This document shows, piece by piece, positions 1 through 28,555 of a stretch of 28,684 nucleotides of DNA. The stretch's first letter is position 1; every line of letters starts with the position of its first letter. The translations under genes and the position numbers were made by a program. This DNA comes from an uncultured Clostridium sp. (GTDB taxonomy: Bacteria > Bacillota > Clostridia > TANB77 > CAG-508), in NCBI GenBank assembly GCA_947568605.1, contig CANOPV010000001.1, positions 1 through 28,684 on the forward strand. The letters are read 5' to 3'. The notes beneath the pieces are model-generated. The model searched no databases. It was given only the letters and a program-made list of their open reading frames with translations, and was not told where the DNA came from.

Positions 1-82
1 TGGACCTACTGGGCCAGCTGGTGCTCCTAGTACTATTGCTGGGCCTACTGGACCAGCAGGAGCTACTGCTCCGATGACATAA
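1..82 (+). pseudogene. 5' part of an interrupted host collagen-like (Gly-X-Y) protein gene; truncated by the element, ending ...GPAGAT-A-P-M-T-stop
   Basis: Frame from base 2 reads GPTGPAGAPSTIAGPTGPAGAT then APMT and TAA at 80-82. GC-rich collagen codons switch abruptly to AT-rich DNA after ~70. The gene starts upstream of the window. Confidence 0.85.
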
Positions 83-98
83 ACCACAAAAGAATAAT
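57..98. other. attL junction: host arm, TGC/GC core (67-69), element arm ccgatgacataaaccacaaaagaataat (71-98)
   Basis: 71-98 is a 22/28 inverted match to 28513-28540, with the first 10 bp perfect. TGC is present at both 67-69 and 28541-28543. Confidence 0.85.
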
Positions 99-194
99 GA
101 TAATAAAATCAACAGAATTTACTGATAACTAGAAGTATAGATTTAATTCTATTCTTTTTTATTTCAATAAAAAACTATCAATTTATGATAGTCC

Positions 195-1316
195 CTAATT
201 TAAACCAACTGAAAAATCAATATAATTAGTTTTCAAATCTATATATCCTGTTGCTATTCCTTTTCTTTTTGTGCCATATTCATTCTTCACAGTTACTTCA
301 ATTCTAAAATAATAATTTCCATTGCCTTGATATTTTTCATCTATTTTTCCTGTAATCCAATGAAATTTTATGCCATAAGGATATTGAGCTTTTCCAGCTT
401 TTTCAAATAATTGCATTGCTTGTTCCTTATATTTTGTACTAGAGTATTTATCTTTTGTTATATCATCATCACTACTTGTATTATCATCTTTATTAACATT
501 ATTATCATCATTGCTATTATTGTTATCTTCTTTATCAATATCATTATCATTGCCATTGTTGTTATTATCTTTATCAACATTATTATTGTCATTGTTTTTA
601 TTGTCTTCTATATTATTATTGTCATCATCGTCATTATTATTTTTTGGAACGTGAAGACTAATTTCAATATTGTTATTTCCTAGATACAATATTGACAACT
701 CATATTTTTCACTATTATATGCTTTATATATTTTAGTATCTTTAATTGAATCAATATTAAATCCAATTTCTTCACATTTTTCAATATATTTACTTAATTC
801 TTCGAGAGATGTATTGCCAATATGAGCTATAAATGTTTCATCGTTATTCCAAGAAATTTTACCAAATGTAGAGTTTGGAACAGGAAGTTTAGATCCTAGT
901 CCAGATGTAGGCCATTCAATTTTACTCATTTCTTCTGGTGCATCTAAATGTATATAAAAGTCTTTATCACTGAAAACTAATCTAACTTTATATCCTTCTT
1001 CGTTAAAAGCAGAATATGTAGTTGGAGTTTCGTCACTTTCAATAGTATATTTTAAATTTATACATTTTTCTTTATAATCTTTATATTCATCTTCACTAAT
1101 ATTTTTGAGAGTTACTGATAGGGCTGTTTTTAAATCTGTTCCTATTTCGCCATAAGTACTTTTTGGCTCTGGTAAATATTTACTTAATTGTAATTCAGAC
1201 CATACTATATTTTGATATTTCTTTTTATTATCACTTTTTTTACTACACATTGTTATGCCTAAAATAACAATGACTAGTAGTAGTAATCCTAATAAAATCA
1301 TTTTTTTCTTTTTCAT
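195..1316 (-). CDS. Membrane-anchored surface protein: N-terminal TM/signal, two tandem ~90-aa domains (DUF6591-like), Asn/Asp-rich linker, C-terminal globular domain
   Basis: MKKKK plus hydrophobic stretch. Two repeats share W..(L)LP.P.ST.G.I ... Y..KC ... Y.A.N.E.Y...L. Canonical SD aaaggag and extended -10 upstream. The DUF name is from memory and unverified. Confidence 0.75.
   Translation of the reverse strand: MKKKKMILLGLLLLVIVILGITMCSKKSDNKKKYQNIVWSELQLSKYLPEPKSTYGEIGTDLKTALSVTLKNISEDEYKDYKEKCINLKYTIESDETPTTYSAFNEEGYKVRLVFSDKDFYIHLDAPEEMSKIEWPTSGLGSKLPVPNSTFGKISWNNDETFIAHIGNTSLEELSKYIEKCEEIGFNIDSIKDTKIYKAYNSEKYELSILYLGNNNIEISLHVPKNNNDDDDNNNIEDNKNNDNNNVDKDNNNNGNDNDIDKEDNNNSNDDNNVNKDDNTSSDDDITKDKYSSTKYKEQAMQLFEKAGKAQYPYGIKFHWITGKIDEKYQGNGNYYFRIEVTVKNEYGTKRKGIATGYIDLKTNYIDFSVGLN
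470..645 (-). repeat. Low-complexity tta/tca/ttg trinucleotide tract encoding an N/D-rich linker with imperfect (V/I)DKD/EDNNN repeats
   Basis: Translation NNNDDDDNNNIEDNKNNDNNNVDKDNNNNGNDNDIDKEDNNNSNDDNNVNKDDN. Confidence 0.8.
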
Positions 1317-1356
1317 ATAAACAAACTCCTTTTTACAAGTAAAAAATTACATTATA

Positions 1357-1365
1357 ATTATAACA
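1357..1365 (-). promoter_or_regulatory. Extended -10 promoter (TGTTATAAT) for the 195..1316 gene
   Basis: Plus-strand attataaca is TGTTATAAT on the minus strand, ~40 nt upstream of the start. SD aaaggag lies at 1326-1332. Confidence 0.55.
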
Positions 1366-1380
1366 CTTTTTAGGTTAAAT

Positions 1381-1406
1381 TAAAACACTCATTATTGAGT
1401 GTTTTA
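1381..1406 (-). terminator. Perfect 11-bp hairpin downstream of the 1463..2002 gene
   Basis: taaaacactca-ttat-tgagtgtttta. Confidence 0.6.
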
Positions 1407-1462
1407 GAAAGTAGGTATTTTTGTACTGCTAATTTACTACTTATACTACTATTACTACTATT

Positions 1463-2002
1463 TTAGTTTACTGCATAATAATTATAGATAGTCGCTAATT
1501 TTAAAATGATCCATAAAATAGCTTTTTCTATATCTTCATCTGGAACAACACTACTGATTCCATAATCAACTATGTACTGTATTGTAACGGGTAACATTAG
1601 TGTTCTTCCTTTTTGATTAAACATTTTAGAAATAAGATCAAAGACAACGTGTTCAGCTTCTTCTTGTGCTTCACAACAAGTATATTCCCAATTATTACTT
1701 CTTTCCAAAATTTTATTTTCTGAATAATCATAATCAAAAAAATCTAGTATATCATCAATATCACGATTGTGTTCTTTATCAAGATATTTTTTACAATCCA
1801 AATCTTTTATTTTTTCTAAATAATCATTGATTAACATTTCATAAGTTATTGTTTTTTCTTCTTTTGACAATTTATCAATTTCTTTAAATAAATCAAATAA
1901 ATCATAGTGATATTCGATTGCTCTTATTTTTTTGATCCTTTCTTCAAAATTTTTTGAAATATTATCTGCATACTCTTGTAGATTGTTTTTTTGTACTTTC
2001 AT
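1463..2002 (-). CDS. Hypothetical acidic protein (179 aa), divergent from the XRE genes
   Basis: Long ORF with SD aaaaggag upstream. No motif recognised. Confidence 0.65.
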   Translation of the reverse strand: MKVQKNNLQEYADNISKNFEERIKKIRAIEYHYDLFDLFKEIDKLSKEEKTITYEMLINDYLEKIKDLDCKKYLDKEHNRDIDDILDFFDYDYSENKILERSNNWEYTCCEAQEEAEHVVFDLISKMFNQKGRTLMLPVTIQYIVDYGISSVVPDEDIEKAILWIILKLATIYNYYAVN

Positions 2003-2169
2003 ACTTTTAGCTCCTTTTCATCTTCTATATTTTTTTGCCTACCTTCTAGCACTTTTTCGTCATATTTTTCACATTATTTCTAATACTATTATAAGTACCT
2101 TACTACATAGTTGGTATGGTTGAAAGGTAATAAACTTATTACAATATTAGTAAGTTATGAAGAAAGGGT

Positions 2170-2439
2170 GTGATGATAATCAAGAGTAAATACAAAGATC
2201 GTGCTCGTAAGATTCTTGCTAACAATATCGTATATTTTAGAATTAAGAAGAACTGGTCCCAAGAAGATTTTGCAGAAGGACTTGGAACTACCACTACTTA
2301 TGTATCTAATTTAGAAAATGCTAGAAGAAATGTTAGGATTGACTACATAGGTCATATTGCTGATACTCTTGGGATTCCTTTAGAACAATTATCTATCGAA
2401 AGAGATCCCGTAGAAAATCATCGTATACCACGACGATAA
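2170..2439 (+). CDS. XRE/Cro-C1 family HTH transcriptional regulator
   Basis: LANNIVYFRIKKNWSQEDFAEGLGTTTTYVSNLENARRNVRIDYIGHIADTLG is a classic XRE pattern. Confidence 0.9.
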   Translation: MMIIKSKYKDRARKILANNIVYFRIKKNWSQEDFAEGLGTTTTYVSNLENARRNVRIDYIGHIADTLGIPLEQLSIERDPVENHRIPRR

Positions 2440-2462
2440 GAATATTAAATTATTCTTTTTTT
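2438..2462 (+). terminator. AT-rich hairpin plus T-tract after the first XRE gene
   Basis: aagaata-ttaaat-tattctt followed by ttttt. Confidence 0.45.
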
Positions 2463-2573
2463 GTGCCGATTTCATTATAACACATCTTTTCTAATTTTTA
2501 TCGCTAATTTGCGTGAATATGTGGCTAATTTACATTTTGATAAATGAGATAATTATTTAGAAAGGTGGGAATA

Positions 2574-2882
2574 ATGACTATGCGAAGATTTGAAGAACTA
2601 CAAGGTCTAGTATCCACAGTAGATAAAAACACAATTTATGATACGATTTGTAAGAACATCAAAAAGTTTCGTGTGGAAAAATACAACGAGTTTAAGAGTC
2701 AAAATTCAAACAGTACAATTAACCCATATTCAAGTGAAAATATTGCAGCTTTACTAGATTATAACCACAATCACTATAAACGATTTGAAAGTGAAACAGA
2801 TAGTACTAAACAAATGCCACTTGATAAGATAATCAAACTATCTATTATATTAGAAAAAAATATTGATGACTTTATTAAATAG
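2574..2882 (+). CDS. Second XRE-like HTH regulator with an insertion between helix 1 and the HTH (likely start ATG 2574)
   Basis: ICKNIKKFR ... SSENIAALLDYNHNHYKRFES ... MPLDKIIKLSIILEKNIDDF. SD aaaggtgg lies before ATG 2574. Confidence 0.75.
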   Translation: MTMRRFEELQGLVSTVDKNTIYDTICKNIKKFRVEKYNEFKSQNSNSTINPYSSENIAALLDYNHNHYKRFESETDSTKQMPLDKIIKLSIILEKNIDDFIK

Positions 2883-2900
2883 TTGTAAGTACACAGATGT

Positions 2901-2926
2901 AAAAGAGTAAAATCTCTTTTTATTTT
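2901..2926 (+). terminator. Intrinsic terminator after the XRE pair
   Basis: aaaagag-taaaat-ctctttt then tatttt. Confidence 0.6.
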
Positions 2927-3086
2927 ATGCTAATTTTAGTCATTTATGTTTATATTAAAATTACATATTGCTTTCAATAATGCTTTATCCACCAAAGTAT
3001 CTTTTTATGAAAACCTAGTGTTTACAAGTGTTTACGATGATTTCATCAGACATTTTAGGCGTGTTTTCTACAACATTTATTCCTAA

Positions 3087-3114
3087 TTGACTATAAACAA
3101 TGGCGTGATATAAT
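3087..3114 (+). promoter_or_regulatory. Strong sigma-A-type promoter, candidate main transfer-operon promoter
   Basis: TTGACT (3087-3092), 16-bp spacer including TG at 3106-3107, TATAAT (3109-3114). Confidence 0.7.
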
Positions 3115-3277
3115 ATAGTAAAATACGAAATAAATGTACTCAATGGACACCATTTACAGGTGTTTTTTTCGTATTTTGTAATAATTTTAAGTGTTTCTAG
3201 TTTGAAATGCTTGATTTTTGGTAGTTTTTGGTATATTATAAACAGCAATTAAAGAAATTTGTTGTTTATAAGAAGTT

Positions 3278-3344
3278 AAGGAAGTAGTATGTATCCTGAT
3301 TTTAAGGTTGCTTACAACCTTAACGGCATCTACTTCCTTTTTTT
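3278..3344 (+). terminator. Long leader hairpin with T7 tail (attenuator-like)
   Basis: Outer stem aaggaagtag (3278-3287)/ctacttcctt (3330-3339), inner stem ttaaggttg/caaccttaa (3302-3323), then T7. Confidence 0.65.
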
Positions 3345-3358
3345 AGGGGGGGTAAGGT

Positions 3359-3559
3359 ATGAATCTATGTCTTAACTTAACAATGCAAATTATATTTACT
3401 AAAACAAAACAACTATTAGATGTCACACCCCTAAAATCAGCAAATCAACGTAGAAATACTTTTATTATTATAAAAAGAGCAATCAAACAAGGACCGCTTA
3501 TGTCCTTATATATGGTTGTTCTTTTTTCATTGAGTACTGGATCGGGGGCAAATTTATGA
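3359..3559 (+). CDS. Possible small protein (66 aa), coupled by ATGA overlap to the next gene; may instead be non-coding leader
   Basis: G-rich SD upstream and stop/start overlap at 3556-3559. No motif recognised. Confidence 0.3.
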   Translation: MNLCLNLTMQIIFTKTKQLLDVTPLKSANQRRNTFIIIKRAIKQGPLMSLYMVVLFSLSTGSGANL

Positions 3560-4011
3560 ACAATACCTTATTAGGAAAGGACGAGCTATCTTTATACGAT
3601 TATATCAAGTTAAGAAACATTATTTTAGATGTCTTTAAATTGTTGAAGTATCTAAAAAGAACTGATGACAAAATTGCTATTCCAAAGATTACTTGTGATT
3701 ATAGGGTTAGATATGAACAATTTATTCCTGTAAGAACTTCTATGGTAGAAAATTATGTTCTAAAAAATATGATGTTGGAAACAAGACTTGAAAATAAAAG
3801 AAGACAATTACTTTCAAAAATTACTTTAGCACTTCGTAAGTTAAATGATTTAGAATTACAAGTTTTTGATTTGACTTTCTATAAGTGCAAAGAAGAAGAT
3901 GAGATATTGTCTATTATGAATTATGGTAAAGATAAAGTCAGAGAAATTAGAAAAAGTGGTTGTATTAAGTTTGTAAGTGCTCTTGGTCTTGACGATAGAT
4001 GTTTTAAATAG
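3556..4011 (+). CDS. ArpU/RinA-like (sigma70 region-4-like C-terminal HTH) transcriptional activator
   Basis: RTSMVE motif, then KITLALRKLNDLELQVFDLTFY...EDEILSIMNYGKDKVREIRKSGCIKFVSALG, the pattern of ArpU-family regulators. Confidence 0.7.
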   Translation: MNNTLLGKDELSLYDYIKLRNIILDVFKLLKYLKRTDDKIAIPKITCDYRVRYEQFIPVRTSMVENYVLKNMMLETRLENKRRQLLSKITLALRKLNDLELQVFDLTFYKCKEEDEILSIMNYGKDKVREIRKSGCIKFVSALGLDDRCFK

Positions 4012-4085
4012 ACATCTATTTTTTTATGTGAAAGTTTGGGGGTGTTAAGAAAAAACTAAAATATTGCACTAAAAGAATATGGGGG

Positions 4086-4589
4086 TTGGTTTTTATAAAT
4101 AGATTAGAAGAACTTATAAAACTATTTGAAGAATGTTCAAGATCTGAAATTGGAACTGCATTACTAGCATTTGAAGAACACATATGTAAAGGTTTAGATG
4201 TTGGTAAAGAAGAATTAAAAAATTTACAAGAAATATTTGATTATTACGATGAATATTATAGCGATCATTATCCTAGTTTAGCAAATGAAGCATTGCAATC
4301 ATCAGAAAACTTAATATTAGAAAAATTTGGTTATTATACAAAAGACGGATATTTAATTAAGTTTAATATTGGTGCTTCTACCGATGAAGATTATACTTCT
4401 ATTGCTGTAAATGTAATTAACAAACAAACAGGTAATATAGAAAATGATTTTGAATGTATCTATAATAATGAAAAATTAGGATATGAACAAGACAATTATT
4501 TTGATTTGGTTTATAAAAGTTGTAAAGAAACCAGAAAACAATTAGATGAAAAATCTATTGAAGAAATTTTAAAAACGTATAAATTATAA
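4086..4589 (+). CDS. Hypothetical acidic protein (true start possibly ATA 4095)
   Basis: Long ORF. The TTG at 4086 directly abuts the GGGGG SD, while in-frame ATA 4095 is at normal spacing. Confidence 0.7.
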   Translation: MVFINRLEELIKLFEECSRSEIGTALLAFEEHICKGLDVGKEELKNLQEIFDYYDEYYSDHYPSLANEALQSSENLILEKFGYYTKDGYLIKFNIGASTDEDYTSIAVNVINKQTGNIENDFECIYNNEKLGYEQDNYFDLVYKSCKETRKQLDEKSIEEILKTYKL

Positions 4590-4600
4590 GGGGGTTATAA

Positions 4601-4840
4601 ATGGAATCAATACTTAATGATATTTTGCGTTTGATCAATGACGCAACAAACTACCTAAAAATGTTCGTGGCTGGAGCTACGGGCTTTTTTGTTTTAAAAG
4701 ATTGTATCTTTTATATGGTGGCTTCTGAAGATCATCAGAAAGCTGCTTCACTTCGTAAAATCAAAACAACACTTATTGCTGGTGTTTCGGTATTTCTTGT
4801 AGTTCAATTTGTAAACTGGATCTTAACTTACTTTAAGTGA
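4601..4840 (+). CDS. VirB2/TrbC-like pilin, two TM helices
   Basis: 79 aa with two hydrophobic helices separated by a short charged linker (EDHQKAASLRKIKTTL). Located in the transfer operon. Confidence 0.65.
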   Translation: MESILNDILRLINDATNYLKMFVAGATGFFVLKDCIFYMVASEDHQKAASLRKIKTTLIAGVSVFLVVQFVNWILTYFK

Positions 4841-4844
4841 TAAT

Positions 4845-5108
4845 ATGAGTCAAGAAAAATTAGTAAAAGAAATTATAAAAACGTGTAAATATTTTAGAAT
4901 TATGGAATTTGAAATTGAAAACTATTTTGTAGAAAAAAAGATTATTGACGGTTTAGAAGATATTATCTTTGTTGAAAATCTACTAAATATTTTCTACAAA
5001 AAGAAAAATCAAAAATACTATAAGAATCGTCTTAATCAACAAAGATTAAAAAATCTTCTTATAGAATTGGAAAAAATAAGATTAAATTTAGAATTTAAGG
5101 GGGTATAA
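4845..5108 (+). CDS. Hypothetical basic protein (87 aa)
   Basis: ORF tightly packed between pilin and ssb. Confidence 0.65.
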   Translation: MSQEKLVKEIIKTCKYFRIMEFEIENYFVEKKIIDGLEDIIFVENLLNIFYKKKNQKYYKNRLNQQRLKNLLIELEKIRLNLEFKGV

Positions 5109-5109
5109 A

Positions 5110-5448
5110 ATGTTTAATACAATGGCGTTAGTAGGAAGACTTTGTGCAGATCCTACTCTAAAAGAATTAGAAGACAATAAAAAAGTATGCAATATTACTT
5201 TAGCTGTTCCACGTCCATTTAAAAATGCAAATGGCGAATATGAAACAGACTTTTTCCCTATTAGTATATGGAATGGTATTGCTGAAAATACTGCAGAATA
5301 TTGTAAAAAAGGCGATATTTTAGGTATAAAAGGAAGATTACAAGGTAAGGATAATAAAATTTCTATAATTGCCGAAAGAATATCTTTTTTATCATCATCT
5401 AAATCAATAAAAGATGATATAGATCAAGAAAAAAATGTAAAAATGTAA
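5110..5448 (+). CDS. ssb: Single-stranded DNA-binding protein lacking the acidic DDLPF tip
   Basis: MFN...LVGRLCADP..., ITLAVPRPFKNANGEYETDFFPISIWN..AE..AEYCKKGD.LGI.GRLQ. Confidence 0.93.
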   Translation: MFNTMALVGRLCADPTLKELEDNKKVCNITLAVPRPFKNANGEYETDFFPISIWNGIAENTAEYCKKGDILGIKGRLQGKDNKISIIAERISFLSSSKSIKDDIDQEKNVKM

Positions 5449-5461
5449 TTTTTTTCAATTT

Positions 5462-5495
5462 AGGGGCTGTATTTTTTTTGAAAGCGCGTTATTAT
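5462..5495 (+). promoter_or_regulatory. Element-specific bipartite promoter motif, copy 1 (aggggctg-N14-gcgcgttattat)
   Basis: Same architecture and spacing as the copies at 25739 and 26329. Confidence 0.65.
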
Positions 5496-5522
5496 TCATT
5501 TAAAGAAAGGACGTGCTTATGT

Positions 5523-6107
5523 ATGTTAAAGAAAATATTTAAAATTAGTGGTATTATTTTATTAGTCGGTTTTATTAGTGTGTTTGTGAAAGGATATATT
5601 TATCAAGAAGCAAAAACTAATCAAAAAGACAATCTCATAGTTGATTCATCATAAAATGAAAAACAAGAGTTAATAGATGAAGACATAATTACTTCTCTAT
5701 TAGATAATAAGGAAGATCAAGAAGTATTAGAAACAAAACAAGAAGAAATTGCTCCAGAAGTAAAACAAGAAGTTGTTATTCAAAAAGAAAATACTTCTCA
5801 ACCAAAACAGGAAGTACAAACTTCTACTACACCAGAAGTTGTTGTTCCACAACCTAAACAACCTACAGAATGGGAAAAATTAGGTATTAGTGAATATGAT
5901 TATTACAATAGTCCAGAGATTTCTTGGAAAACAGTAGATTTTGATGTAAATAAATTAGGAAGTATGGAAGAAACAAAAAATGCTTGTTATAATGCAGGTG
6001 CAAATTATACAGGGTTAGAAAATTATCGTTTTAGATGTGATGAAACTTATAGTTACTCTGGTAAATTTTTAGGTTATCACATTCAATATATAGAATTAGA
6101 ATCATAA
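5523..6107 (+). pseudogene. Membrane-anchored/secreted protein (194 codons) broken by one in-frame TAA at 5652-5654
   Basis: MLKKIFKISGIILLVGFISVFVKG...IVDSS*NEKQELIDED...PKQPTEWEKLGISEYDYYNSP...YHIQYIELES*. SD gaaagga upstream. The frame is otherwise uninterrupted. Missing from the ORF track. Confidence 0.8.
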
Positions 6108-6128
6108 GGCCGTAAAGGTCTTTTTTTT
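6106..6128 (+). terminator. Intrinsic terminator upstream of the adhesin gene
   Basis: aaggcc-gtaaa-ggtctt followed by T8. Confidence 0.7.
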
Positions 6129-6152
6129 ATGAATTTATAAGGGGGAATTTTA

Positions 6153-8891
6153 ATGAATATAAAAAGAAAAATTTTACTTGCTATACCCATTTTACTGGGT
6201 ATAGTTTTAGGCTTTGCCACTTCTACTTTAGAAGTCAAAGCTGAAACTTATGCAGGACAAGCTATTTGGCCTAGCGAATATATTTCAAATGTATATTTGA
6301 AAAAAGCAAGATCCGACGGTTATGTTGCTTATAAACAAGCAAGATTTATGCGTCGTAGTGAAGATAATGCTTTTGTTTATTGTCTTCAACCATTTGTTGA
6401 TATTGATAATAACCTTATTTATAATGTTGCACGAAGTGATTATGCAACTTATCTTAATATGACACCAGAACAATGGGATAGAATTAGTTTACTTGCCTAT
6501 TATGGATATGGATATGGAAATCATAATACCCCAAAATGGTATGCTGTTACACAAGTATTGATTTGGCGTACTGCAGAGCCAACAAGTACTATTTACTTTA
6601 CTGACGGTTTAAATGGTACTAGAAATGACAATTTATTTATTGATGAAATAAATGAGATTGAAAGTTTAGTTGCTCAACACAATAAAAGGCCTAACTTTAA
6701 TTCAGAATCTATTACACTACCTTTAGGAAAAACTATTACATTAAATGATGTAAATAATGTTTTAAATGGGTATAGAGTGAAAGAACAAAGTAATGCAAGT
6801 GCAAGTATCAATGGTAATTCACTTTCAATTACTGCTACTGGTGTCGGAAATGCTACTATTAAGTTATCAAAGGAAGATTCTTTATATCCTACACCACCAG
6901 TAGTATATTTTAAGGAAGGCACTCAAAATGTATTTAGAGTTGGATCATTTGATCCTTTATATTCTACTATCAATTTAAAAGTAGTTGGTGGTCGTGTTGA
7001 AATCACAAAGAGAGATAAAGACACAGGCGAAGTAATTCCACAGGGATTAGCTTCACTTTCTAATGCCACTTATGGAATATACAATGCCGAAACAAACGAT
7101 CTTGTTGGAACAATAACAACGGATAATAATGCTTTTGCAAGAAGTGATTATCTACCTGATTTAGGTAGATTTTATTTGCAAGAAATTACACCTAGTCAAG
7201 GATATAAATTAGATACTCAAAAGTATTACTTCACAGTAGATGAAAATAATTTACTTGTTAAAGTAGATGTTTACGAAGAAGTAATCACTCGTGAATATGA
7301 AATTACAAAAGTTTATGCTTCTGATAAAACACAAATTATGACACCAGAGATTGGGGTTGAATTTGCTATCTATGATCATAATAATAATTTAGTATCAATA
7401 GAAACTACAGATAAAGACGGTAAGATTTACTTTTCACTTCCTTATGGCGATTACACATTAAGACAACTTACTTCTACAAGTGGGTTTGAAAAAATAGAAG
7501 ATTATCATTTTGAAGTTAGAGATTTAGGTCCTACTATCAATAAGGTTTTCTCAAATGCTGAAATCACATCAAGATTAAAAGTAGTTAAAGTAGATCAAGA
7601 CGGTAATAATATTACACAAGCTGGTATTAAGTTTAAAATTAAAGATTTAGCAACTGGTAAGTATGTATGTCAAACAGTATCTTATCCTACCACTACTACT
7701 TATTGTGAGTTTGAAACTGATAAGGACGGTGTTTTAATTACACCATATCCATTAAATAGTGGTAATTATCAATTAGAAGAAGTAGATCAAGTTGTTTATG
7801 GGTATGTTTGGAATTCTACACCACTTCCATTTACTATAGATGAGAAAGCTGATATTAAGAAAACTGATGAATTTGACGCCATACTTGAAATTCATTTTGA
7901 AAATCAAGAAGTTAAAGGTGTTATTGAATTAAATAAAGTTGGCGAACAAATAGTAATTGAAAATGGTACATATACTTATGAAGAAATAGAACTTCCTAAT
8001 GTAGTATTTGGTTTATATGATGAATCAGGTAATCTTATTAAAACACTTGAAACAAATGATAAAGGTTTTGTAAGATTTGAAGATTTAAAACTTGGAAAGT
8101 ATATTATAAAAGAAATTTCTACTACTGGAAATCATATTTTAGATAATGAAGAATATGAGTTTGTTCTTGAATATAAGGATCAATATACACCTATAATCAA
8201 AAAAACATTTACTCTTAAAAACTATCTAGGAAAAGGAAGTTTAGATTTTCGTAAAACTGATCTAACAAGTGGTAAGGAACTTCCTAATGTAAAAATAGAA
8301 ATATATACTTCTGACGATGAACTTATTTATAGTGGTGTTACTGATGAAAACGGTAAAATCAAAATAGAAAATCTATTTATTGGAAAATTCTATATAATTG
8401 AAACTGAAACAGTAACAGGTTATAAATTATCTGATGAGAAAGTATATTTTGAGATTTTAGAAAATGGCGAAGTTGTAAAAGCTAGTATGACTAATGAAAA
8501 ATTTAAAGGAGATTTGGAATTTACAAAGGTAGATTTATCTACTGGCGATCCACTTCCTAACACATTGATTGAAGTATATAATGCTGAAACAGAAGAACTT
8601 ATCTTTTCTGGTCGTACTGATGAAAACGGTAAAATCATCATTAAAGATTTAGAATATGGTAAGTACTACATTCTTGAAAAAGAAGCACCAGAAAATTATA
8701 TTTTGAATGAAGAAAAAATGTATTTTGAAATTTTAGAGAATGGCGAAGTTGTAAAAGCAACAATGACTAATGAAAAAGTAGAAATGCCTAAAACATTCAA
8801 TACTGATATAACTAGTGTTATTACTATTATGGGTACTGCCCTAGTAGGGTTAGGTCTTCTATTATATGCTAAAAAGAAAAATAATAAATAA
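6153..8891 (+). CDS. Thioester-domain (TED) adhesin with multiple SpaA/Cna-B isopeptide domains and a C-terminal sorting signal (MPKTF-TM-KKK)
   Basis: Signal peptide. VYCLQP (Cys77) and TQVLIW (Gln134) TED motifs. Repeated TD..G...L..G.Y...E...P.GY Cna-B units. Hydrophobic anchor followed by a Lys tail. Confidence 0.88.
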   Translation: MNIKRKILLAIPILLGIVLGFATSTLEVKAETYAGQAIWPSEYISNVYLKKARSDGYVAYKQARFMRRSEDNAFVYCLQPFVDIDNNLIYNVARSDYATYLNMTPEQWDRISLLAYYGYGYGNHNTPKWYAVTQVLIWRTAEPTSTIYFTDGLNGTRNDNLFIDEINEIESLVAQHNKRPNFNSESITLPLGKTITLNDVNNVLNGYRVKEQSNASASINGNSLSITATGVGNATIKLSKEDSLYPTPPVVYFKEGTQNVFRVGSFDPLYSTINLKVVGGRVEITKRDKDTGEVIPQGLASLSNATYGIYNAETNDLVGTITTDNNAFARSDYLPDLGRFYLQEITPSQGYKLDTQKYYFTVDENNLLVKVDVYEEVITREYEITKVYASDKTQIMTPEIGVEFAIYDHNNNLVSIETTDKDGKIYFSLPYGDYTLRQLTSTSGFEKIEDYHFEVRDLGPTINKVFSNAEITSRLKVVKVDQDGNNITQAGIKFKIKDLATGKYVCQTVSYPTTTTYCEFETDKDGVLITPYPLNSGNYQLEEVDQVVYGYVWNSTPLPFTIDEKADIKKTDEFDAILEIHFENQEVKGVIELNKVGEQIVIENGTYTYEEIELPNVVFGLYDESGNLIKTLETNDKGFVRFEDLKLGKYIIKEISTTGNHILDNEEYEFVLEYKDQYTPIIKKTFTLKNYLGKGSLDFRKTDLTSGKELPNVKIEIYTSDDELIYSGVTDENGKIKIENLFIGKFYIIETETVTGYKLSDEKVYFEILENGEVVKASMTNEKFKGDLEFTKVDLSTGDPLPNTLIEVYNAETEELIFSGRTDENGKIIIKDLEYGKYYILEKEAPENYILNEEKMYFEILENGEVVKATMTNEKVEMPKTFNTDITSVITIMGTALVGLGLLLYAKKKNNK
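8230..8780 (+). repeat. Two tandem ~92-aa Cna-B/SpaA repeats with high DNA similarity
   Basis: actgatgaaaacggtaaaatca and tattttga.attttaga.aatggcgaagttgtaaaagc..atgactaatgaaaaa each occur twice. Confidence 0.8.
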
Positions 8892-9480: not shown

Positions 9481-9485
9481 TTAAA

Positions 9486-9716
9486 ATTAAAAGATATAAT
9501 ACAAAGTTTATGTTTTACATAACAAAAAATCTCAAAAAAGATATAAGAAAAAGATCCAAAGAATTAGATATTTCTATGTCTGATTATATAAGGACACTAA
9601 TAAAAAAAGATTTAAAGGAATGTGAAATTGTTTCTAATACTTTGGAAAAAGATAAAAATATTTATGATGTGGATAATTTCAATAAGAAGTTATCAGGTTA
9701 CTATAGGGGGTTATAA
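9486..9716 (+). CDS. Ribbon-helix-helix (CopG-like) DNA-binding protein (ATT 9486 or ATG 9510 start)
   Basis: (KRYNTK)FMFYITKNLKKDIRKRSKELDISMSDYIRTLIKKDL shows a beta-strand plus helix-helix pattern. Confidence 0.65.
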   Translation: MKRYNTKFMFYITKNLKKDIRKRSKELDISMSDYIRTLIKKDLKECEIVSNTLEKDKNIYDVDNFNKKLSGYYRGL

Positions 9717-10379: not shown

Positions 10380-10392
10380 AGGGGGTTAAAAA

Positions 10393-11295: not shown

Positions 11296-11306
11296 GTGGT
11301 GTTTGT

Positions 11307-12960: not shown

Positions 12961-12969
12961 TTACAAATA

Positions 12970-12999: not shown

Positions 13000-13005
13000 T
13001 ATATT

Positions 13006-16669: not shown

Positions 16670-16692
16670 TTAAACAAGTTACTAATGGAATT

Positions 16693-17932: not shown

Positions 17933-17958
17933 ATTTGAATTTAAAGGGGGTTATATAA

Positions 17959-19979: not shown

Positions 19980-19992
19980 GGGGGTTATAACT

Positions 19993-21837: not shown

Positions 21838-22960
21838 TCAAACTATGACTTTATTTAATTATGAATATCCATTTATTAAACTAGATAAGAATAATGTTAA
21901 GGTTGGTACTTTCTTTTCTGGTATTGGAAGTCCAGAAATGGCTTTTCATAGATTAAAAGAAAATGGTATTATAAATAATTATGAATCTGTATTTTTTTGT
22001 GAAGTGGATAAACACGCGATTAAAAGTTATTGTGCGATCCATAATAAAACACCAGATGACAATCTTGGGGATATTACTAAAATCAATGGTGCTGATATTC
22101 CATATTGTGATATTTGGATCGGTGGCTTTCCCTGTCAAGATATAAGTATGGCTGGTGTTCGTCGTGGCTTTGATTTTGGAAGTCGTACTCGTTCTTCTCT
22201 TGGGTGGAAAATGATACAATTTTTAAGAGAAGTAAAAGATCCACCAAAAGTAGTTATTTTTGAAAATGTGGCTGCAATTACTCATTCAAAATTTAGAATA
22301 ACATTGAACTTATTTAAAAATGATTTAGAAGAATTAGGATATTCACTTTATGATGATGTTTTATGTGCTTTAGATTATGGTACACCACAAAATAGAGAAA
22401 GATATTTTTTAGTTGCAATCAAGGGAAAATACTTATATCAATTTCCACAAAAAATGAAATTGAAGTTAAGACTTAAAGATTTACTAGAAAAAGATATTGA
22501 TCCTAATCTTATTTTATCTGAAAAAGTTCCATTTGATTTACAAAGTTTTGTTGCTAATAAAGATTATACAAAAGATTGTAAGTTAGTTTGTAAGAATCTG
22601 AAAGATAAAAGAAGAAAATATATAATAGATTTATATAGATTTATTGACGGTAAAAATAAGTGTGGACGTGATACATCTAGTAAATATAATCAAACTGCAA
22701 GGTTATGGTCTATAAATGGATATTGTCCTACACTAACGGCGAATTCTACAGAAGATACAAGTAAAATGATTATCTATCGTGATAATTGTTTTTTTGTGAA
22801 AAAAATTAGTCCTTTAGAAAGCTGGCGTTTTATGGGGTTTAGTGATGAAGATTTTTATAAAGCAAAAGACATCGGTACTTCTAATCGTCAATTATTCAAA
22901 CAAGCTGGAAATAGTATTGCTACAAATGTGATTTATCATATTTTAAAAAAATTATTTTAA
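21824..22960 (+). CDS. dcm: Orphan C5-cytosine DNA methyltransferase (likely start ATG 21824)
   Basis: Motif I FFSGIGS, IV GFPCQD, VI FENV, VIII QNRER, TRD TL motif (CPTLTA), X QAGNSI. Confidence 0.93.
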   Translation: MTLNNQTMTLFNYEYPFIKLDKNNVKVGTFFSGIGSPEMAFHRLKENGIINNYESVFFCEVDKHAIKSYCAIHNKTPDDNLGDITKINGADIPYCDIWIGGFPCQDISMAGVRRGFDFGSRTRSSLGWKMIQFLREVKDPPKVVIFENVAAITHSKFRITLNLFKNDLEELGYSLYDDVLCALDYGTPQNRERYFLVAIKGKYLYQFPQKMKLKLRLKDLLEKDIDPNLILSEKVPFDLQSFVANKDYTKDCKLVCKNLKDKRRKYIIDLYRFIDGKNKCGRDTSSKYNQTARLWSINGYCPTLTANSTEDTSKMIIYRDNCFFVKKISPLESWRFMGFSDEDFYKAKDIGTSNRQLFKQAGNSIATNVIYHILKKLF

Positions 22961-22986
22961 TATCATAGATATATATTAGAAAAAAA

Positions 22987-22995
22987 TGTTATAAT
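22987..22995 (+). promoter_or_regulatory. Extended -10 promoter (TGTTATAAT) for the lipoprotein pair
   Basis: Exact TGnTATAAT ~40 nt upstream of 23038. Confidence 0.55.
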
Positions 22996-23037
22996 TGATT
23001 TACAAATAGATATACTATTTGAAAGTGAGATGATATA

Positions 23038-23592
23038 GTGAAAAAAGTATTGTTATTATGTTTAATAAGTATTTGTATTTTATTAACTGGTTGTTCGGAA
23101 GAAAAGGATTCATTTGAGCATTATGATTTAAAAGATAAAGATTTGAATATTTATACATATTTTAGTGATAACGGCAAAGAAGTTTATGCTTTAGCAGATA
23201 TAACGCCTAGTTCTTATGAATCGTTTTTAACGGGGTTCTTCTATAAAATTGATGACAACGATTATATTTTATTAGAAACATTAGAATCATCCCAACAAGA
23301 TGCTTATAAAAAAGACTATATGTATCAATTTTATGATAATAAACTTTATGGTGTTGGAAATGGAAATTCCCCTATGATATTTGAAATAGAGTTAAAAAGA
23401 AAAGAAAGTAAAATTAAAGAGTTAGAATTTAAAATAGATGAAAAAACTAATCCTTTTTTAATAAGTAGTATTAGAAATATTGATAAAGACTTAATTACTA
23501 TTTCTGGGGATATTTTTATAAGTGAACATAGTGAGTATAGATACTTTGAATGTTCTTTAAAAAACTATGAATGCTCTATAAAGGATAAATAA
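23038..23592 (+). CDS. Lipoprotein of unknown function
   Basis: MKK plus hydrophobic stretch and lipobox LLTG-C. Confidence 0.8.
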   Translation: MKKVLLLCLISICILLTGCSEEKDSFEHYDLKDKDLNIYTYFSDNGKEVYALADITPSSYESFLTGFFYKIDDNDYILLETLESSQQDAYKKDYMYQFYDNKLYGVGNGNSPMIFEIELKRKESKIKELEFKIDEKTNPFLISSIRNIDKDLITISGDIFISEHSEYRYFECSLKNYECSIKDK

Positions 23593-23599
23593 TAAATTT

Positions 23600-24004
23600 A
23601 TGAAAAAAATTACATATTTTGTTTTGATAACTATATCATTTTTAATATTGATATGTATTATTTATGTTATATTAGGTTTTACTGGTAATTTATATACAAA
23701 AAAAGAATCATATCTTTCATCAAATAAAGAATATAAAATTGTTATAAAAGGTAATGGTGCAAAATGGCCGTTCGGTAGTGAAGATATAAAGGTGTATGCT
23801 TATAAAAATAGTTTTACTGGCACTTTTAGTAAAGCAATTTATAAAACAAAAATATTTAATGATGGCAAAATTTTAAATGATAGTAATTTTAATATTGAAT
23901 GGAATGATAATATTGCATACCTTTCTTTAAATGGCGAAGAACAAAAAGATGAAATTTTAAAAATAGTTTTTGAAGATAAGGTTACTATTGAAAAAATGGA
24001 ATAA
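23600..24004 (+). CDS. Single-TM membrane protein of unknown function
   Basis: MKK plus one TM helix, then a soluble domain with WPFG, NDG and GEEQ motifs. Confidence 0.75.
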   Translation: MKKITYFVLITISFLILICIIYVILGFTGNLYTKKESYLSSNKEYKIVIKGNGAKWPFGSEDIKVYAYKNSFTGTFSKAIYKTKIFNDGKILNDSNFNIEWNDNIAYLSLNGEEQKDEILKIVFEDKVTIEKME

Positions 24005-24130
24005 TAAATGGAATTAGATTATCAAACAAAAAGATAATCTTTTCTTTTGGCCTATTTTATTCTAGTAAAATCGTGATATAATGTAATTGATATGTAGGAT
24101 CCTAGAATAATATATTCGGTCATCTGTTGA

Positions 24131-24159
24131 TTGACTTTTGTAATGTATTACTGTATGAT
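24131..24159 (+). promoter_or_regulatory. Sigma-A promoter for 24204
   Basis: TTGACT, 17 bp, TATGAT. A second TGaTATAAT lies at 24074-24082. Confidence 0.55.
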
Positions 24160-24203
24160 AATACGTACTCTATCAAAACTTTAAGTATTAAGGAGTAGTA
24201 TGT

Positions 24204-24725
24204 ATGAAAAACGAACAGTATTTAGAACTTCGGAATCAGGTTTCAGAAATGAATAAGATTAACGATGAAATAAGTCTTATAAACTGGAATCGTGAAGACG
24301 GTCCCAAATTTTCATCTGTAGAAGAAATGAAAGAATTTGAACATAGATTAAAAAATAATGAATTTGATTATTTTTTTGAAGATAAAGATAATGCTGATAT
24401 ACTAGATACAAAAGATGTTATTGTTGAAAGTTTTTCTCATACACTAGAAGACATATCATTCTATATTTATACATACCAAAACAAAAGTAACTATAACTAT
24501 GTTACTTATCTATCATTAACTAATACAAAAGATAATGATATAATTGACAAATTATGTGGTAATACTACTTCTGATAAAGAATCCGCACATAATTATTTTG
24601 AAACATTAAAACAAGCAATAACAAATAATAATATAAATGATATTTTGGAAAACTTAACTTTAGGAGCACAAAAAACTATAGTATCATTAAAAAATAAATT
24701 ATCTAAACTAACTAGTGAAAGCTAG
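24204..24725 (+). CDS. Hypothetical protein (173 aa)
   Basis: Canonical SD aaggag. No motif recognised. Confidence 0.7.
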   Translation: MKNEQYLELRNQVSEMNKINDEISLINWNREDGPKFSSVEEMKEFEHRLKNNEFDYFFEDKDNADILDTKDVIVESFSHTLEDISFYIYTYQNKSNYNYVTYLSLTNTKDNDIIDKLCGNTTSDKESAHNYFETLKQAITNNNINDILENLTLGAQKTIVSLKNKLSKLTSES

Positions 24726-24753
24726 TTTTTTTGTTTATAAAGGGGGTTAAAAT

Positions 24754-25737
24754 ATAGATATAGGAAAATTAGTGAATGATCTAAAAGATTATTCTAAAAA
24801 TAATGAATTTGATAAGATTAAAGATATAACATTAAAATTTGAAAAAGATTTTCTTGATAATTGTAAAAGTGAATATGATTTTAAAAGTTTGATTGATGAT
24901 TTATCTTTATATAGTAATTATACAGTTTTAAATACATTATTGATAAAATATCAATATCCAGATTTTCTATCACTTGGAACAAAACAATCATATTTAGATC
25001 AAGGTGTTCAATTACTAGAAAATGCTACACCTATTGAAATACTAACACCAATCAGTGATGAATATGTATCTATAAAAGAAAATGATAAAGTGATAATTAA
25101 AAATATGAAAGATCTGACAAAACAAGAATTAAAAAGATATTTTGATAAAGAGAATAAAGATGTTGTGTTTCATCATAAAGATTTTAAAGGTCTTAATTCT
25201 ACTATACTCTTTGATGTAAAAGATACAACAATGAAGAAAATTGATTATGATACTGGGACGCTTCCGGCTCTTTTTTATTCTTCTTATGATGAAATTTACA
25301 ATAGTTTTATAAAGGCACTTTATGCTGACGGTTTTAAAGTAAAATATGTTAATATGAATAATAAATACTCTTTTGATAAGGATAGTAAAACAATTAGTTT
25401 AAAACAAGGTTTGAACAAAAGAACACACTTAATGATAGTGCTTGATATTTATACAAATAATATAGCTTCTAATGAAATGGAAAAAGATATGTTAGATATG
25501 GTTATTTCAAGAAGAATTGGAATAGATAAAGAAGATGTTTCTTTTGATAAGTTTCAATCTTGGTATAAGAATCAAGATATAAAAACAGTAGATAATCTAC
25601 TAAAAGTGATTGTTAATAAAGGAAGAAAATTTGCAAATAATTTTAATAAGTTTTATGAGATAGAATTTCAAAAGAATGAAAGCTTATATCCAGATGACGA
25701 GAAAGGTTTATATGATGACTTTTCTCTTTTTTCATAA
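24754..25737 (+). CDS. ArdC/LtrC-like ssDNA-binding protein with a degenerate metallopeptidase region (start ATA 24754 or GTG 24772)
   Basis: LSLYSNYTVLNTLLIKYQYPD...G..LLENATPIEILTP resembles the ArdC N-domain (YSFNN.LLI..Q.P...G..V..G...I.IL.P). No HExxH is present downstream. Confidence 0.55.
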   Translation: MDIGKLVNDLKDYSKNNEFDKIKDITLKFEKDFLDNCKSEYDFKSLIDDLSLYSNYTVLNTLLIKYQYPDFLSLGTKQSYLDQGVQLLENATPIEILTPISDEYVSIKENDKVIIKNMKDLTKQELKRYFDKENKDVVFHHKDFKGLNSTILFDVKDTTMKKIDYDTGTLPALFYSSYDEIYNSFIKALYADGFKVKYVNMNNKYSFDKDSKTISLKQGLNKRTHLMIVLDIYTNNIASNEMEKDMLDMVISRRIGIDKEDVSFDKFQSWYKNQDIKTVDNLLKVIVNKGRKFANNFNKFYEIEFQKNESLYPDDEKGLYDDFSLFS

Positions 25738-25738
25738 A

Positions 25739-25772
25739 GGGCGCTGACAAGAATTTTCTGGCGCGTTATAAT
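25739..25772 (+). promoter_or_regulatory. Element-specific bipartite promoter motif, copy 2 (gggcgctg-N14-gcgcgttataat)
   Basis: Perfect TATAAT. CTGACA lies at the -35 position (17 bp). Confidence 0.75.
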
Positions 25773-25793
25773 TCGTTTGTAAGGCGGTGTAAA

Positions 25794-26081
25794 ATGAAAA
25801 AGAATTGTTATGATGAATTATATAACATTCATAAAGAAAGGAAAATCAGGGCTTTTTATGTTGATCTATTATGTGAGATACTTCTACTTCGTTATGAGTT
25901 TTCTTATAAGGAAACAACAAAAAAAGATGTATTGAGTGAACTACCAAGTTTGAGAGAATTTAAAAGTACAGAAGTAGAAAAAATTTATAATGATAGTCTT
26001 AAGATATTAGAATTAAGATATAGAATTAAAGTTTTAGATGATAGTCCATTAAAATTTGTAAAAGAAAATGAAATATCATAA
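25794..26081 (+). CDS. Hypothetical protein (95 aa)
   Basis: SD aaggcgg. Directly downstream of motif copy 2. Confidence 0.7.
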   Translation: MKKNCYDELYNIHKERKIRAFYVDLLCEILLLRYEFSYKETTKKDVLSELPSLREFKSTEVEKIYNDSLKILELRYRIKVLDDSPLKFVKENEIS

Positions 26082-26126
26082 ATAATAAAATATAGGCAAA
26101 TACTTGCTAATTAGTGAATATACTAT

Positions 26127-26160
26127 AAAGAATAGACATAAAACTCTATTCTTTTCTTTT
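26127..26160 (+). terminator. Intrinsic terminator
   Basis: aaagaataga-cataaaac-tctattcttt plus a T-rich tail. Confidence 0.65.
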
Positions 26161-26193
26161 TTCTTTAAATAAGATTTAAAGGGGGTTGAAAAA

Positions 26194-26346
26194 ATGAAGA
26201 ATAAAAAGGTAACTTATAAGATTATAAATGAATTTAATGTTGATAAAGATAAAACAAAGGACGATTTAAAACTTTCTTTTAATAAGAAACTTTTAAAGGT
26301 AATACTTTCTATTGAAAAAAATGTATATGGGCGCTGTAATTCCTAA
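26194..26346 (+). CDS. Small basic protein (50 aa) upstream of the recombinase; candidate recombination directionality factor
   Basis: GGGGG SD. MKNKKVTYKIINEFNVDKDKTKDDLKLSFNKKLLKVILSIEKNVYGRCNS. The function is inferred from position only. Confidence 0.55.
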   Translation: MKNKKVTYKIINEFNVDKDKTKDDLKLSFNKKLLKVILSIEKNVYGRCNS

Positions 26347-26362
26347 ACGAGCGCGTTATAAT
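26329..26362 (+). promoter_or_regulatory. Element-specific bipartite promoter motif, copy 3, upstream of the recombinase
   Basis: gggcgctg-taattcctaaacga-gcgcgttataat, with boxes identical to copy 2. Confidence 0.75.
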
Positions 26363-26415
26363 ATTATTATGTTATCAATGAATTCTGTTAAATTAGTAAA
26401 GGAGCTAAATTTAAT

Positions 26416-28509
26416 ATGAAGAAAATAGTTGAAACAGTTGATATTATTATAAGGAGAGTGGTACTTTATTTAAGACTATCAAAAGAAGATGTTGATAAAC
26501 CTACCAAAGAAGCTATTAGTGAGAGTATTAAGAATCAAGAACTAATGCTTCGTGAAGAAGTGGCAAAACACCCAGATTGGGAAATTGTAGGTGTTTATTG
26601 TGATGAAGACTTTTCGGGAGCAGGAACATATAGGCCAGACTTTGAAAGAATGATTACTTCTTGTGAAAATGGCGAAGTTGATATTGTTTTATGTAAAAGT
26701 CAATCAAGATTTTCAAGAGATATGGAAGTCATCGAAAAATACTTACATAATAAATTTCTTATGTGGAATGTTAGATTCGTTAGTATTGTAGATAATGCTG
26801 ATACTGATAATAAAGGTAACAAAAAAGCAAGACAAATCAATGCACTTGTTAATGAGTGGTTTTTGGAAGATTTATCTGATAACATCAAAGCGACTTTTCG
26901 TACAAAATGGCAAAATGGCGAATGTACTGCTTCTTTCGCAAAATATGGGTTAATGAAAGATATAAAGAATAAAAATCATTTACTTATTGATCCTATTGCT
27001 AGTGAAGTTTTAAAACAAATTGCTGATATGCTTTTCGCAGGATATGGGCAAGATAAAATTGCAAAGACTTTGGAAGATAAGAAAATTCCTAGTCCTTATG
27101 AATATAAAGCGATGAATGGTTGTAAATTAAAACTTCCTATTTCAAAGAAAGAAGATAAATACTCTATTTCAAAAGCTGGTCAATATATTGTTAGAATTTC
27201 TTTATATAATGAGTATAAACAAATTTTAAGAAACATAAAATCTGTTTATGTATTTGGTACTGATAATCAAAAAGAATATAATTCAAAATTTCATATTAGA
27301 GTTAGATCCATAAGTGAAGATTTAAAGTTATACTATACCACTGATAATTTATCATCTAGTATAGATAACCTAGACTTTAATAATATTGATTTTTCTAGTG
27401 ATGTATGGCACGAACTAAAAACAAATGATATGATTCCAGATGATGTCTATTATATTGGAAGTGCAAATGTTGAATTAGATAGACTAATAGAAACTGGTTT
27501 TGAAATAGAAATAGAACTTGAAGAAAACAAAGGTCATAATACTTATAAAATGTTTACAAAATCAAAAGCAGATGATACCGATACACAATTTAATTTTGAA
27601 TATGAAATAAGAAGAAGATACAAATGGTCTGGACGTGTTATTTATAATATGTTAAGAGATCCTATTTATAATGGTACTTTAATACAAGGTAAAACTAGAA
27701 GAATAAGTTATAAAAATCACAAATGTATAAATGCAAAAAAAGAACACTGGGTTACAAGTGAAAGTGCTCTTGAAAAAATATTTGATGATGAAAAGTGGTT
27801 ATCTATTCAAACAAAATTAAATGAAGTTAGTAGATCAGGTGCAGACGGTGTTAAACATATCTTTTGTGGAAAAGTTTATTGTTCTGAATGTGGTAGTATA
27901 TTGCGTAAAAATAGTAGTTGTCAAAACAAAGATAGCGAAAAAGTAGAATATCTATTATGTAAGGATAAAGAGAACAAATGGGCAAATTGTGATAATAACA
28001 AGTCTATCAAATTAAATGTATTAGAAGATTATGTTTTATCAGCTATGAATGGCTTGTTAGATGAGTATTATGATAAAGATACATTAAAAGAACTTCACAA
28101 AGAAGTTATTGATAAAGATTTATTCAAAGATCAATTAGATAGTTTTAATAAAGAGAAAAACGACATTCAAAATCTTATAAAAAGAAAAAAAGAGATATTT
28201 CAACAACTTTATGAAGATCGTGCTACTGGAATTATTGATGATAATGATTTCACTTCCCTACGAGCAAAGTATAAGGAAGATGTAGATAAGTTAAGCGAGA
28301 GATTATCTACTATAGATAATGAATTAAAGTTAATTGAAATGAAACAAAACAAGTTAAAAGATAGAGATAGTCTTCTTTCAAAGTATAGACATTTCGATGT
28401 TCTTACACCAGAACTACTTGATGAATTTATAGATAAGATCAAGGTAGGAAAAATTGATGATGAAACAAATACTAGAGAAATTAGAATCGTTTGGAACTTC
28501 CAAACTTAA
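26416..28509 (+). CDS. Large serine recombinase (integrase) with a ~155-aa insertion in the recombinase domain
   Basis: YLRLS (Ser22), [22 protein letters not shown], recombinase-domain W and L.DPIY.G, Zn ribbon CSEC...C...C, coiled coil, ends EIRIVWNF. Confidence 0.95.
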
Positions 28510-28512
28510 TAA

Positions 28513-28555
28513 ATTACTTATGTGTGGATAATGTCATCGGTGCAACTGGTGCCAC
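28513..28555. other. attR junction: element arm (28513-28540), TGC/GC core (28541-28543), host arm
   Basis: Inverted partner of 71-98, four bases after the integrase stop. Abrupt switch to GC-rich collagen codons. Confidence 0.85.

Follow-up and report, generated by a model that had tools for sequence, protein, structure and literature searches.

A conjugative element from a mouse-gut Clostridium with a serine integrase that appears to use collagen-like repeat DNA as its landing site

Background

The described systems closest to the element discussed here are Tn5397 and Tn4451, conjugative or mobilisable clostridial transposons that carry a DUF4368-type large serine recombinase (TndX and TnpX, respectively) at one end. 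They use a 2-nt crossover and several targets, with a preference for DNA encoding one protein motif; in the case of Tn5397 the preferred DNA is that of the Fic domain (PMC4430133). Recombinases with DUF4368 were recognised as a multi-targeting clade by Durrant et al. 2022 (PMC10083194). Our subject is a 28,684-nt stretch of DNA from an uncultured Clostridium (the window, by which the whole stretch is meant), which carries an integrative and conjugative element (ICE) with a recombinase of this type, inserted in DNA that codes for collagen-like Gly-X-Y repeats. The ICE is a relative of Tn5397 and Tn4451 rather than a copy. Its crossover takes place at AC, against GT or AT in sister elements and GA in the two transposons; its target is DNA encoding Gly-Pro/Ala-Thr repeats, and its integrase belongs to a group carrying a beta-domain insert of 119-158 amino acids that is missing from 27 shorter relatives. 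Its transfer genes, with a MobL relaxase and a VirB4/VirD4 set, are not of the Tn916 type.

Also relevant are the elements in which a serine recombinase splits a gene of a spore-former and precise excision rebuilds it, namely skin (SpoIVCA) in sigK, SPbeta (SprA-SprB) in spsM, gin in gerE, vfbin and yin (PMC4191935, PMC5595907). For skin, SPbeta and gin there is good evidence of excision in the mother cell (PMC4191935, PMC5595907, PMC5025042). The ICE resembles these gene-splitting elements in interrupting a gene that precise excision would rebuild, and that gene may be a spore-envelope gene. However, the elements named above each occupy one fixed site in one gene and have been shown to be excised in development, whereas the ICE uses several genes, in both orientations, and is fully conjugative.

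Like phiC31, Bxb1 and A118, the ICE has minimal attP and attB sites that are imperfect inverted repeats around a non-palindromic, polarity-setting core of 2 nt. Those three have a single unique attB; the attB of the clade described here is instead a short degenerate motif, repeated many times in repeat genes, and the core has been flipped between AC and GT several times within this one clade. Full-text searches found no literature linking serine recombinases to collagen-like genes as integration targets, and integrases for which Gly-Pro-Thr repeat DNA is the landing site have apparently not been described as a clade so far.

The element and its ends

The window is the entire contig C1 of a fragmented metagenome-assembled genome (MAG; 1.25 Mb in 240 contigs, 68% complete, 25.7% G+C), and the sequencing runs that contain its sequence are mouse-gut metagenomes. 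Relaxase, coupling protein, VirB4 ATPase and integrase all lie inside the ends defined below, which is the arrangement of an ICE. A preliminary description of this DNA had called the element complete, and this holds: a VirB4 ATPase, a coupling protein, a TrbL-like channel protein, an M23 peptidase, a MobL relaxase with its NikA-like accessory, a single-strand DNA-binding protein, an adhesin with a sortase and an intact integrase at the right end are all present (Table 1).

The ICE is bounded by 64 nt (left) and 138 nt (right) of in-frame Gly-X-Y coding DNA, on the plus strand on both sides, in keeping with the earlier claim of an insertion in collagen-like coding DNA. The flanks are very short because the contig ends inside collagen repeats on both sides. 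No collagen-like coding DNA was found on any other contig of the MAG, so the remainder of the interrupted gene has been left unassembled; by their strand, frame and analogy with other insertions, the two flanks would be parts of one gene. Past the insertion the open reading frame (ORF) of the left flank reads T-A-P-M-T and then meets a TAA stop at 80-82.

A perfect 10-nt inverted repeat, ATGTCATCGG and CCGATGACAT, stands at the two element ends; the 10-mer occurs three times in the 1.25-Mb assembly, at both contig ends and at one unrelated place. Two short direct repeats are also common to the ends, TGC (67-69 and 28541-28543) and ACTG (65-68 and 28545-28548). The preliminary description had recorded the first of these correctly, had placed the crossover at its GC, and had counted 22/28 matches in the flanking inverted repeat; the inverted repeat is there, with 21/28 matches in the same register. 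Exchange at the AC of ACTG instead would give an attP of ATGTCATCGGTGCA-AC-TGCTCCGATGACAT, the arms of which match at 13 of the 14 innermost positions and at 25 of 34 overall, and an attB of GGAGCTAC/TGGTGCC, in frame and with an unbroken Gly-X-Y pattern (G-A-T-G-A). This attB is shorter by 6 nt (GCAACT) than the one from the GC joint, which reads GAT-AT-GAT, likewise in frame. Since both joints are in frame, the window alone cannot choose between them.

Other copies can. In the six complete elements, for which both ends are available (the window and those here labelled G041, G318, L014, L016 and L023), we compared the two bases past the conserved ...GCA of the right arm, the AC position of the window. 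There attL and attR carry the same dinucleotide in all six: AC in the window and G041, GT in G318, L016 and L023, and AT in L014. At the GC position attL and attR differ in four of the six (L014 GG/GC, L016 GC/CC, L023 GT/GC, G318 GG/GC). The limits of identity between the window and the G041 copy fall at the AC as well, at exactly 65 and 28546, with unrelated flanks outside. Moreover, the tail-fibre gene of a prophage, into whose 3' end the G041 copy is inserted, has intact homologues, and in all eight of these 22 residues run from a conserved FAxVxx motif to the C-terminus (...GGVRPCFYID). The G041 fibre rebuilt with an AC joint has 22 residues after FAxVxx; with a GC joint it would have 24.

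Because the shared dinucleotides, the identity limits and the tail-fibre homologues all fit AC, we place the crossover at the dinucleotide AC (65-66 and 28545-28546), which belongs to a Thr codon; this is three bases further out on each side than had been proposed. As read from these comparisons, the element proper runs from 67 to 28544, and the TGC at each end is part of the element arms and not of the target. Of the attB given in the preliminary description, the in-frame joint is retained and the position is not; the accompanying claim that precise excision would restore the frame stands with the AC joint. The predicted empty site joins window 40-66 to 28547-28575 (...GGAGCTAC/TGGTGCC...), and the predicted circle junction joins 28511-28546 to 67-100 (...ATCGGTGCAAC/TGCTCCGAT...).

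The same element at other sites

G041 is another mouse-gut MAG, labelled "uncultured Bacilli bacterium", with the ICE copy inside an 87-kb contig. Its integrase is 97% identical to that of the window, and the two elements are collinear: they are 91.5% identical across 21.7 kb, and 96% identical in the last 2.5 kb. In G318 an integrase of 92% identity lies inside a 77-kb contig, and the ICE stands antisense in a short collagen/TNF-like (BclA-like) gene (MFNHCENSLLEHPRGPRCSNCFVQGPTGAT/GPSGLPGPS...). An inversion of the central 10 bp of attP as the difference between the two elements, that of the window and that of G318, was considered and rejected, as the G318 attL does not fit it.

Elements whose integrases are at least 92% identical thus occupy three different sites, and both orientations occur among them. 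Closely related integrases in several unrelated target genes are what defines a multi-targeting recombinase, and judging by these copies the ICE behaves as a mobile element with several sites. Near-identical copies at different sites in different MAGs also point, indirectly, to excision, transfer and re-integration of the ICE. The right junction of the window is reproduced by Logan contigs in four independent mouse-gut runs. Two Logan contigs cease matching at 28546 and 28549, which is suggestive of other insertion sites, the contigs being too short to use. The right flank has no match in two genomes of the same genus.

Target sites across the integrase clade

The integrase homologues collected from public assemblies include 15, of 37-97% identity, in the clade to which the window integrase belongs. 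All 15 abut collagen-like or Gly-rich coding DNA: 14 independent integrases (37-93% identity) end beside Gly-X-Y coding DNA, and the 97% copy in G041 ends beside a Gly-rich tail. Alignment of 20 target half sites on the core yields the consensus W-G-G-W-C-C-N-R-Y-W-G-G, and the full site, GGWCCW-AC-WGGWCC, is coding DNA for Gly-Pro-Thr-Gly-Pro. Because GGN and CCN codons are reverse complements of each other, DNA for Gly-Pro-Thr forms a natural dyad around the Thr codon in which the core alone is asymmetric.

The orientation of the insertions follows the core. Of the elements with an AC core, all 7 run in the same direction as the collagen gene; all 6 with a GT core run antisense to it, and the single AT-core element is inserted at an ATG codon where the repeats end. 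The switches between AC and GT within the clade extend even to sisters of 92-97% identity.

The right end of the element also has a coding property. In the window an ORF is open from a TTG at 28491 through the end repeat into the right flank (28491-28684), and GTGGATAATGTCATCGG, the terminal inverted repeat, translates as V-D-N-V-I-G in the frame of the target fragment that follows, as it also does in L014 (4596-4622) and L111 (1577-1621). In L014 the ORF that crosses from the element into the remaining 3' portion of the target starts at ATG, in place of the TTG of the window. Such an ORF might allow an N-terminally truncated protein to be expressed.

The integrase and its insert domain

The integrase has a Resolvase domain (PF00239, E 2.9e-20) with the catalytic motif YLRLSKED at residues 18-25 and, C-terminal to this catalytic domain, a Recombinase domain (PF07508, E 9.6e-13) and a Zn ribbon (PF13408, E 1.9e-7); DUF4368 (PF14287) is matched at E 1e-8. 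A 2-nt core at the centre of an imperfect attP dyad, common to attL and attR, is likewise characteristic of large serine recombinases. The intact frame, the recent spread over several sites and the presence of the same ICE at different sites suggest that the enzyme is active. At 27403, 27404 and 27415, within the integrase gene, four of four independent mouse-gut runs differ from the window (G>A, T>A and C>T, respectively), and the window therefore carries a private variant or assembly errors at these positions.

Maximum-likelihood phylogeny groups the collagen-targeting integrases in a single clade (support 100/100). All 15 have the insert, which in the window occupies residues 247-399 (27154-27612), whereas all 27 shorter relatives (about 500-570 amino acids) have 2-5 residues at its position and none of these flanks Gly-X-Y DNA. 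AlphaFold models the insert as a confident all-beta domain, with a predicted local distance difference test score (pLDDT) of 82.6 and a predicted template-modelling score (pTM) of 0.77, and comparison of this model with PDB and the AlphaFold clusters gave no significant structural match. The perfect correlation between insert and target suggests that the insert domain reads the repeat DNA.

Among loci L055-L087, whose integrases are about 530 amino acids long, many of these shorter relatives lie directly against a conserved downstream sequence, ...CCATGGTGG..., that could code for GHGG. This suggests that the sister group of shorter relatives targets another conserved coding motif, possibly that of an amidase-type gene. 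The MAG of the window itself contains a second large serine recombinase, on the minus strand of contig C90 (G000, locus L114; 1-1834), with an internal TAA. Its N-terminal part is 47% identical to the window integrase, and it abuts the middle of a coding sequence of the Mn-catalase/CotJC family (Pfam profile positions 149-197 of 284). It looks like another gene-intervening element, in a gene of spore-coat type.

Gene content

Protein families were assigned with Pfam profiles, and the features of the window are collected in Table 1. The integrase-proximal module of three proteins is kept beside the integrase in L013, L014 and L015 (72-98% identity), and we regard it as the likeliest place for a directionality factor.

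Table 1. Coordinates of the element, its genes and its flanks in the window
Feature	Start	End	Strand	Remarks
Left flank	1	64	+	5' part of interrupted collagen-like ORF, frame 2: GPTGPAGAPSTIAGPTGPAGA
Core dinucleotide AC at attL	65	66	+	First two bases of Thr codon ACT 65-67; identity with G041 starts at 65
P' arm of attP	67	100	+	Left terminal inverted repeat, TGCTCCGATGACATAAACCACAAAAG...
DUF6591 protein	195	1316	-	Cargo or function not known
HTH_3 regulator	2170	2439	+	Cro/CI-type
Small pilin-like protein of type IV secretion system	4601	4840	+	Weak match (E 2.5e-4, below Pfam cut-off)
Single-strand DNA-binding protein (SSB)	5110	5448	+	
Surface adhesin	6153	8891	+	Thioester domain and SpaA-type repeats
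Sortase	8866	9480	+	
TrbL/VirB6-like channel protein	11307	12716	+	
VirB4/TraG-type conjugation ATPase	14315	16669	+	
M23 peptidase	16693	17352	+	Cell-wall hydrolase of transfer apparatus
NikA-like relaxase accessory protein	18122	18562	+	
MobL-family relaxase	18549	19979	+	
Type IV coupling protein (VirD4/TraG)	20038	21837	+	
C-5 cytosine DNA methyltransferase	21716	22960	+	
Integrase-proximal module	24204	26081	+	Three proteins without known family (173, 321, 95 amino acids)
Large serine recombinase (integrase)	26416	28509	+	697 amino acids; Resolvase, Recombinase, Zn ribbon, DUF4368
P arm of attP	28511	28544	+	Right terminal inverted repeat, ...GTGTGGATAATGTCATCGGTGCA; kept in all clade members
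Core dinucleotide AC at attR	28545	28546	+	blastn alignment to G041 ICE ends at 28546; flanks differ beyond
Right flank	28547	28684	+	3'-ward part of collagen-like ORF ((T) + 45 residues), open to contig end

The host lineage

A Spo0A_C domain is present in the MAG of the window and in all 24 relatives searched (25 of 25 genomes), and SpoIVA in 8 of 8 relatives searched; SpoIVA was not found in the MAG itself, which is only 68% complete. With Spo0A and SpoIVA in its lineage, the host is one of a group of spore-formers whose genomes are small (about 1-2 Mb). In most of these genomes there are 2-5 separate matches to the Spo0A_C domain, which is unusual at a genome size of 1-2 Mb.

Weighing the explanations

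The explanation we favor, and hold to be probable, is that a presumably active ICE of about 28.48 kb (67-28544 plus one AC) was placed at the AC of a collagen repeat by a collagen-targeting serine integrase, for which such repeats serve as landing pads and not as parts of a switch. It is built on the gene content, the ends, the crossover position, the target common to the clade and the use of several sites. A crossover at the self-complementary GC of the TGC (68-69 and 28542-28543), with GGAGCTACTGCAACTGGTGCC as attB, would agree with the TGC common to both ends and with the in-frame joint, and the attP it yields is indeed an 11/12 palindrome, as the preliminary description had said. But it is contradicted by the unequal attL and attR at the homologous position in L014, L016, L023 and G318. 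The G041 copy has TGC at both ends despite its other target, which assigns these bases to the element arms; the GC joint would also interrupt Gly-X-Y and add two residues lacking in the eight intact tail-fibre homologues. A palindromic core abolishes polarity in large serine integrases, as is established for Bxb1 and phiC31, and with exchange at AC the puzzle of a palindromic core disappears. We therefore think a GC crossover very improbable. Scarcely credible at all is an assembly artefact, in which a circular molecule had been opened in its own collagen-like gene or two collagen ends from different loci had been brought together. The contig does coincide with the whole window and has repeats at both ends, and the ORF from TTG 28491 does run over the end repeat into the right flank, as an artefact of this kind would allow; yet the chromosomal contigs of G041 (87 kb) and G318 (77 kb) hold the ICE with identical ends and have no collagen DNA of its own past the AC, and the right junction recurs, as far as 28546-28567, in Logan contigs from independent mouse-gut runs.

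More deserving of attention, though in our estimation unlikely, is a developmental switch, in which excision in the mother cell during sporulation would yield a collagen-like glycoprotein of the exosporium while the germ line keeps the ICE. The preliminary description had likewise proposed that the element could turn a collagen-like surface protein off and on, and had taken restoration of the frame as a pointer to this; conservative serine recombination always restores the sequence present before insertion, so frame restoration says nothing about switching. In favor of a switch are the spore-forming lineage, the BclA_C or C1q-like C-terminal domains of relatives' targets, which lie beside glycosyltransferases, the CotJC/Mn-catalase gene split by the C90 recombinase element, and the precedents of skin, SPbeta, gin and vfbin (PMC4191935, PMC5595907, PMC5025042). 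The 5.3-kb non-conjugative relative L016 adds to these, being found in the same BclA-like gene in 22 of 22 contigs with one identical neighbouring protein; on the other hand these contigs may stem from one clone, and the 5' gene fragment in L016 has no recognisable start. Related mini-elements are also stably lodged in genes of BclA type. Against a switch, the ICE occurs at three different sites, rather than one fixed site, in both orientations and in a prophage tail fibre among others. It also keeps its full transfer apparatus, and neither a sporulation promoter nor a directionality factor nor any product of excision was observed. A broader version, in which the clade, from mini-elements of 3 kb to ICEs of 30 kb, uses its collagen-reading beta-domain and its orientation-setting core to interrupt exosporium genes of small-genome gut spore-formers, to be excised in the mother cell, is doubtful to the same degree; if it were true, the make-up of the spore surface would be set by which elements a strain carries.

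The L016 locus was looked at further. No empty site was found there, the element being present in all 22 contigs with the neighbouring glycosyltransferase, and an intact relative (P0122, only 71% identical) stands beside the same kind of glycosyltransferase. The 5' BclA-like fragment (L016 11569-11800) consists of only about 40 collagen codons, with neither an N-terminus nor a start that could be recognised, and is followed by a motif like the P' arm (GT TGGTGCGTATCGG) and a block of metal-resistance genes. This could mean that the BclA-like gene is permanently broken, or that it is adjoined by a second, tandem element; the latter idea, prompted by the P'-like motif and the missing gene start, was dropped when the one candidate ORF proved not to be an integrase.

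Several observations weigh against the explanation we favor. Neither the empty attB nor the circular attP, in AC or GC version, was found in JGI metagenome contigs, and the AC version of attB, with up to 3 mismatches, was not found in 301 genomes of the family; the search proposed in the preliminary description thus returned neither junction. Both are also absent from the Logan contigs of four mouse-gut runs, which break inside the repeats. The G041 site fits the half-site consensus poorly, and a search for a directionality factor among the ORFs beside the integrase gave no Pfam or PHROGs match. Finally, the flanks amount to 64 + 138 nt, so that their continuity is presumed and the target gene may code for a spore-surface protein or a phage fibre: what is seen of the interrupted gene is 202 nt of Gly-X-Y flank, relatives' targets being of BclA_C type and one target a phage tail fibre.

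Implications

For insertion by a collagen-targeting integrase we would propose the following; chemistry and binding mode are inferred, as are the part played by the insert domain and the landing-pad rationale. Two dimers of the TndX-like DUF4368 integrase would bind the near-palindromic attP and attB, and strands would be exchanged at the AC of the Thr codon, with the non-palindromic core setting the orientation: an AC core would insert co-directionally with the collagen gene, and the GT cores of sister elements in reverse. Insertion would truncate the target gene, the 5' fragment here ending four codons into the element, and excision, presumably with a directionality factor, would rebuild GGAGCTAC/TGGTGCC exactly. 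Collagen-like repeats would then be abundant and tolerant landing pads for a mobile element that uses several sites.

A mobile element can in this way exploit a property of the genetic code, in that Gly and Pro codons are reverse complements, which gives collagen DNA a built-in dyad and the element a large number of safe places to land. With its clear, short target motif and its own extra domain, the clade is in turn a natural system for studying target choice by large serine recombinases, a question of importance to genome engineering. For the gut spore-formers themselves, whose collagen-like genes are often split or unassembled, insertions of this clade in the repeats are a possible cause.

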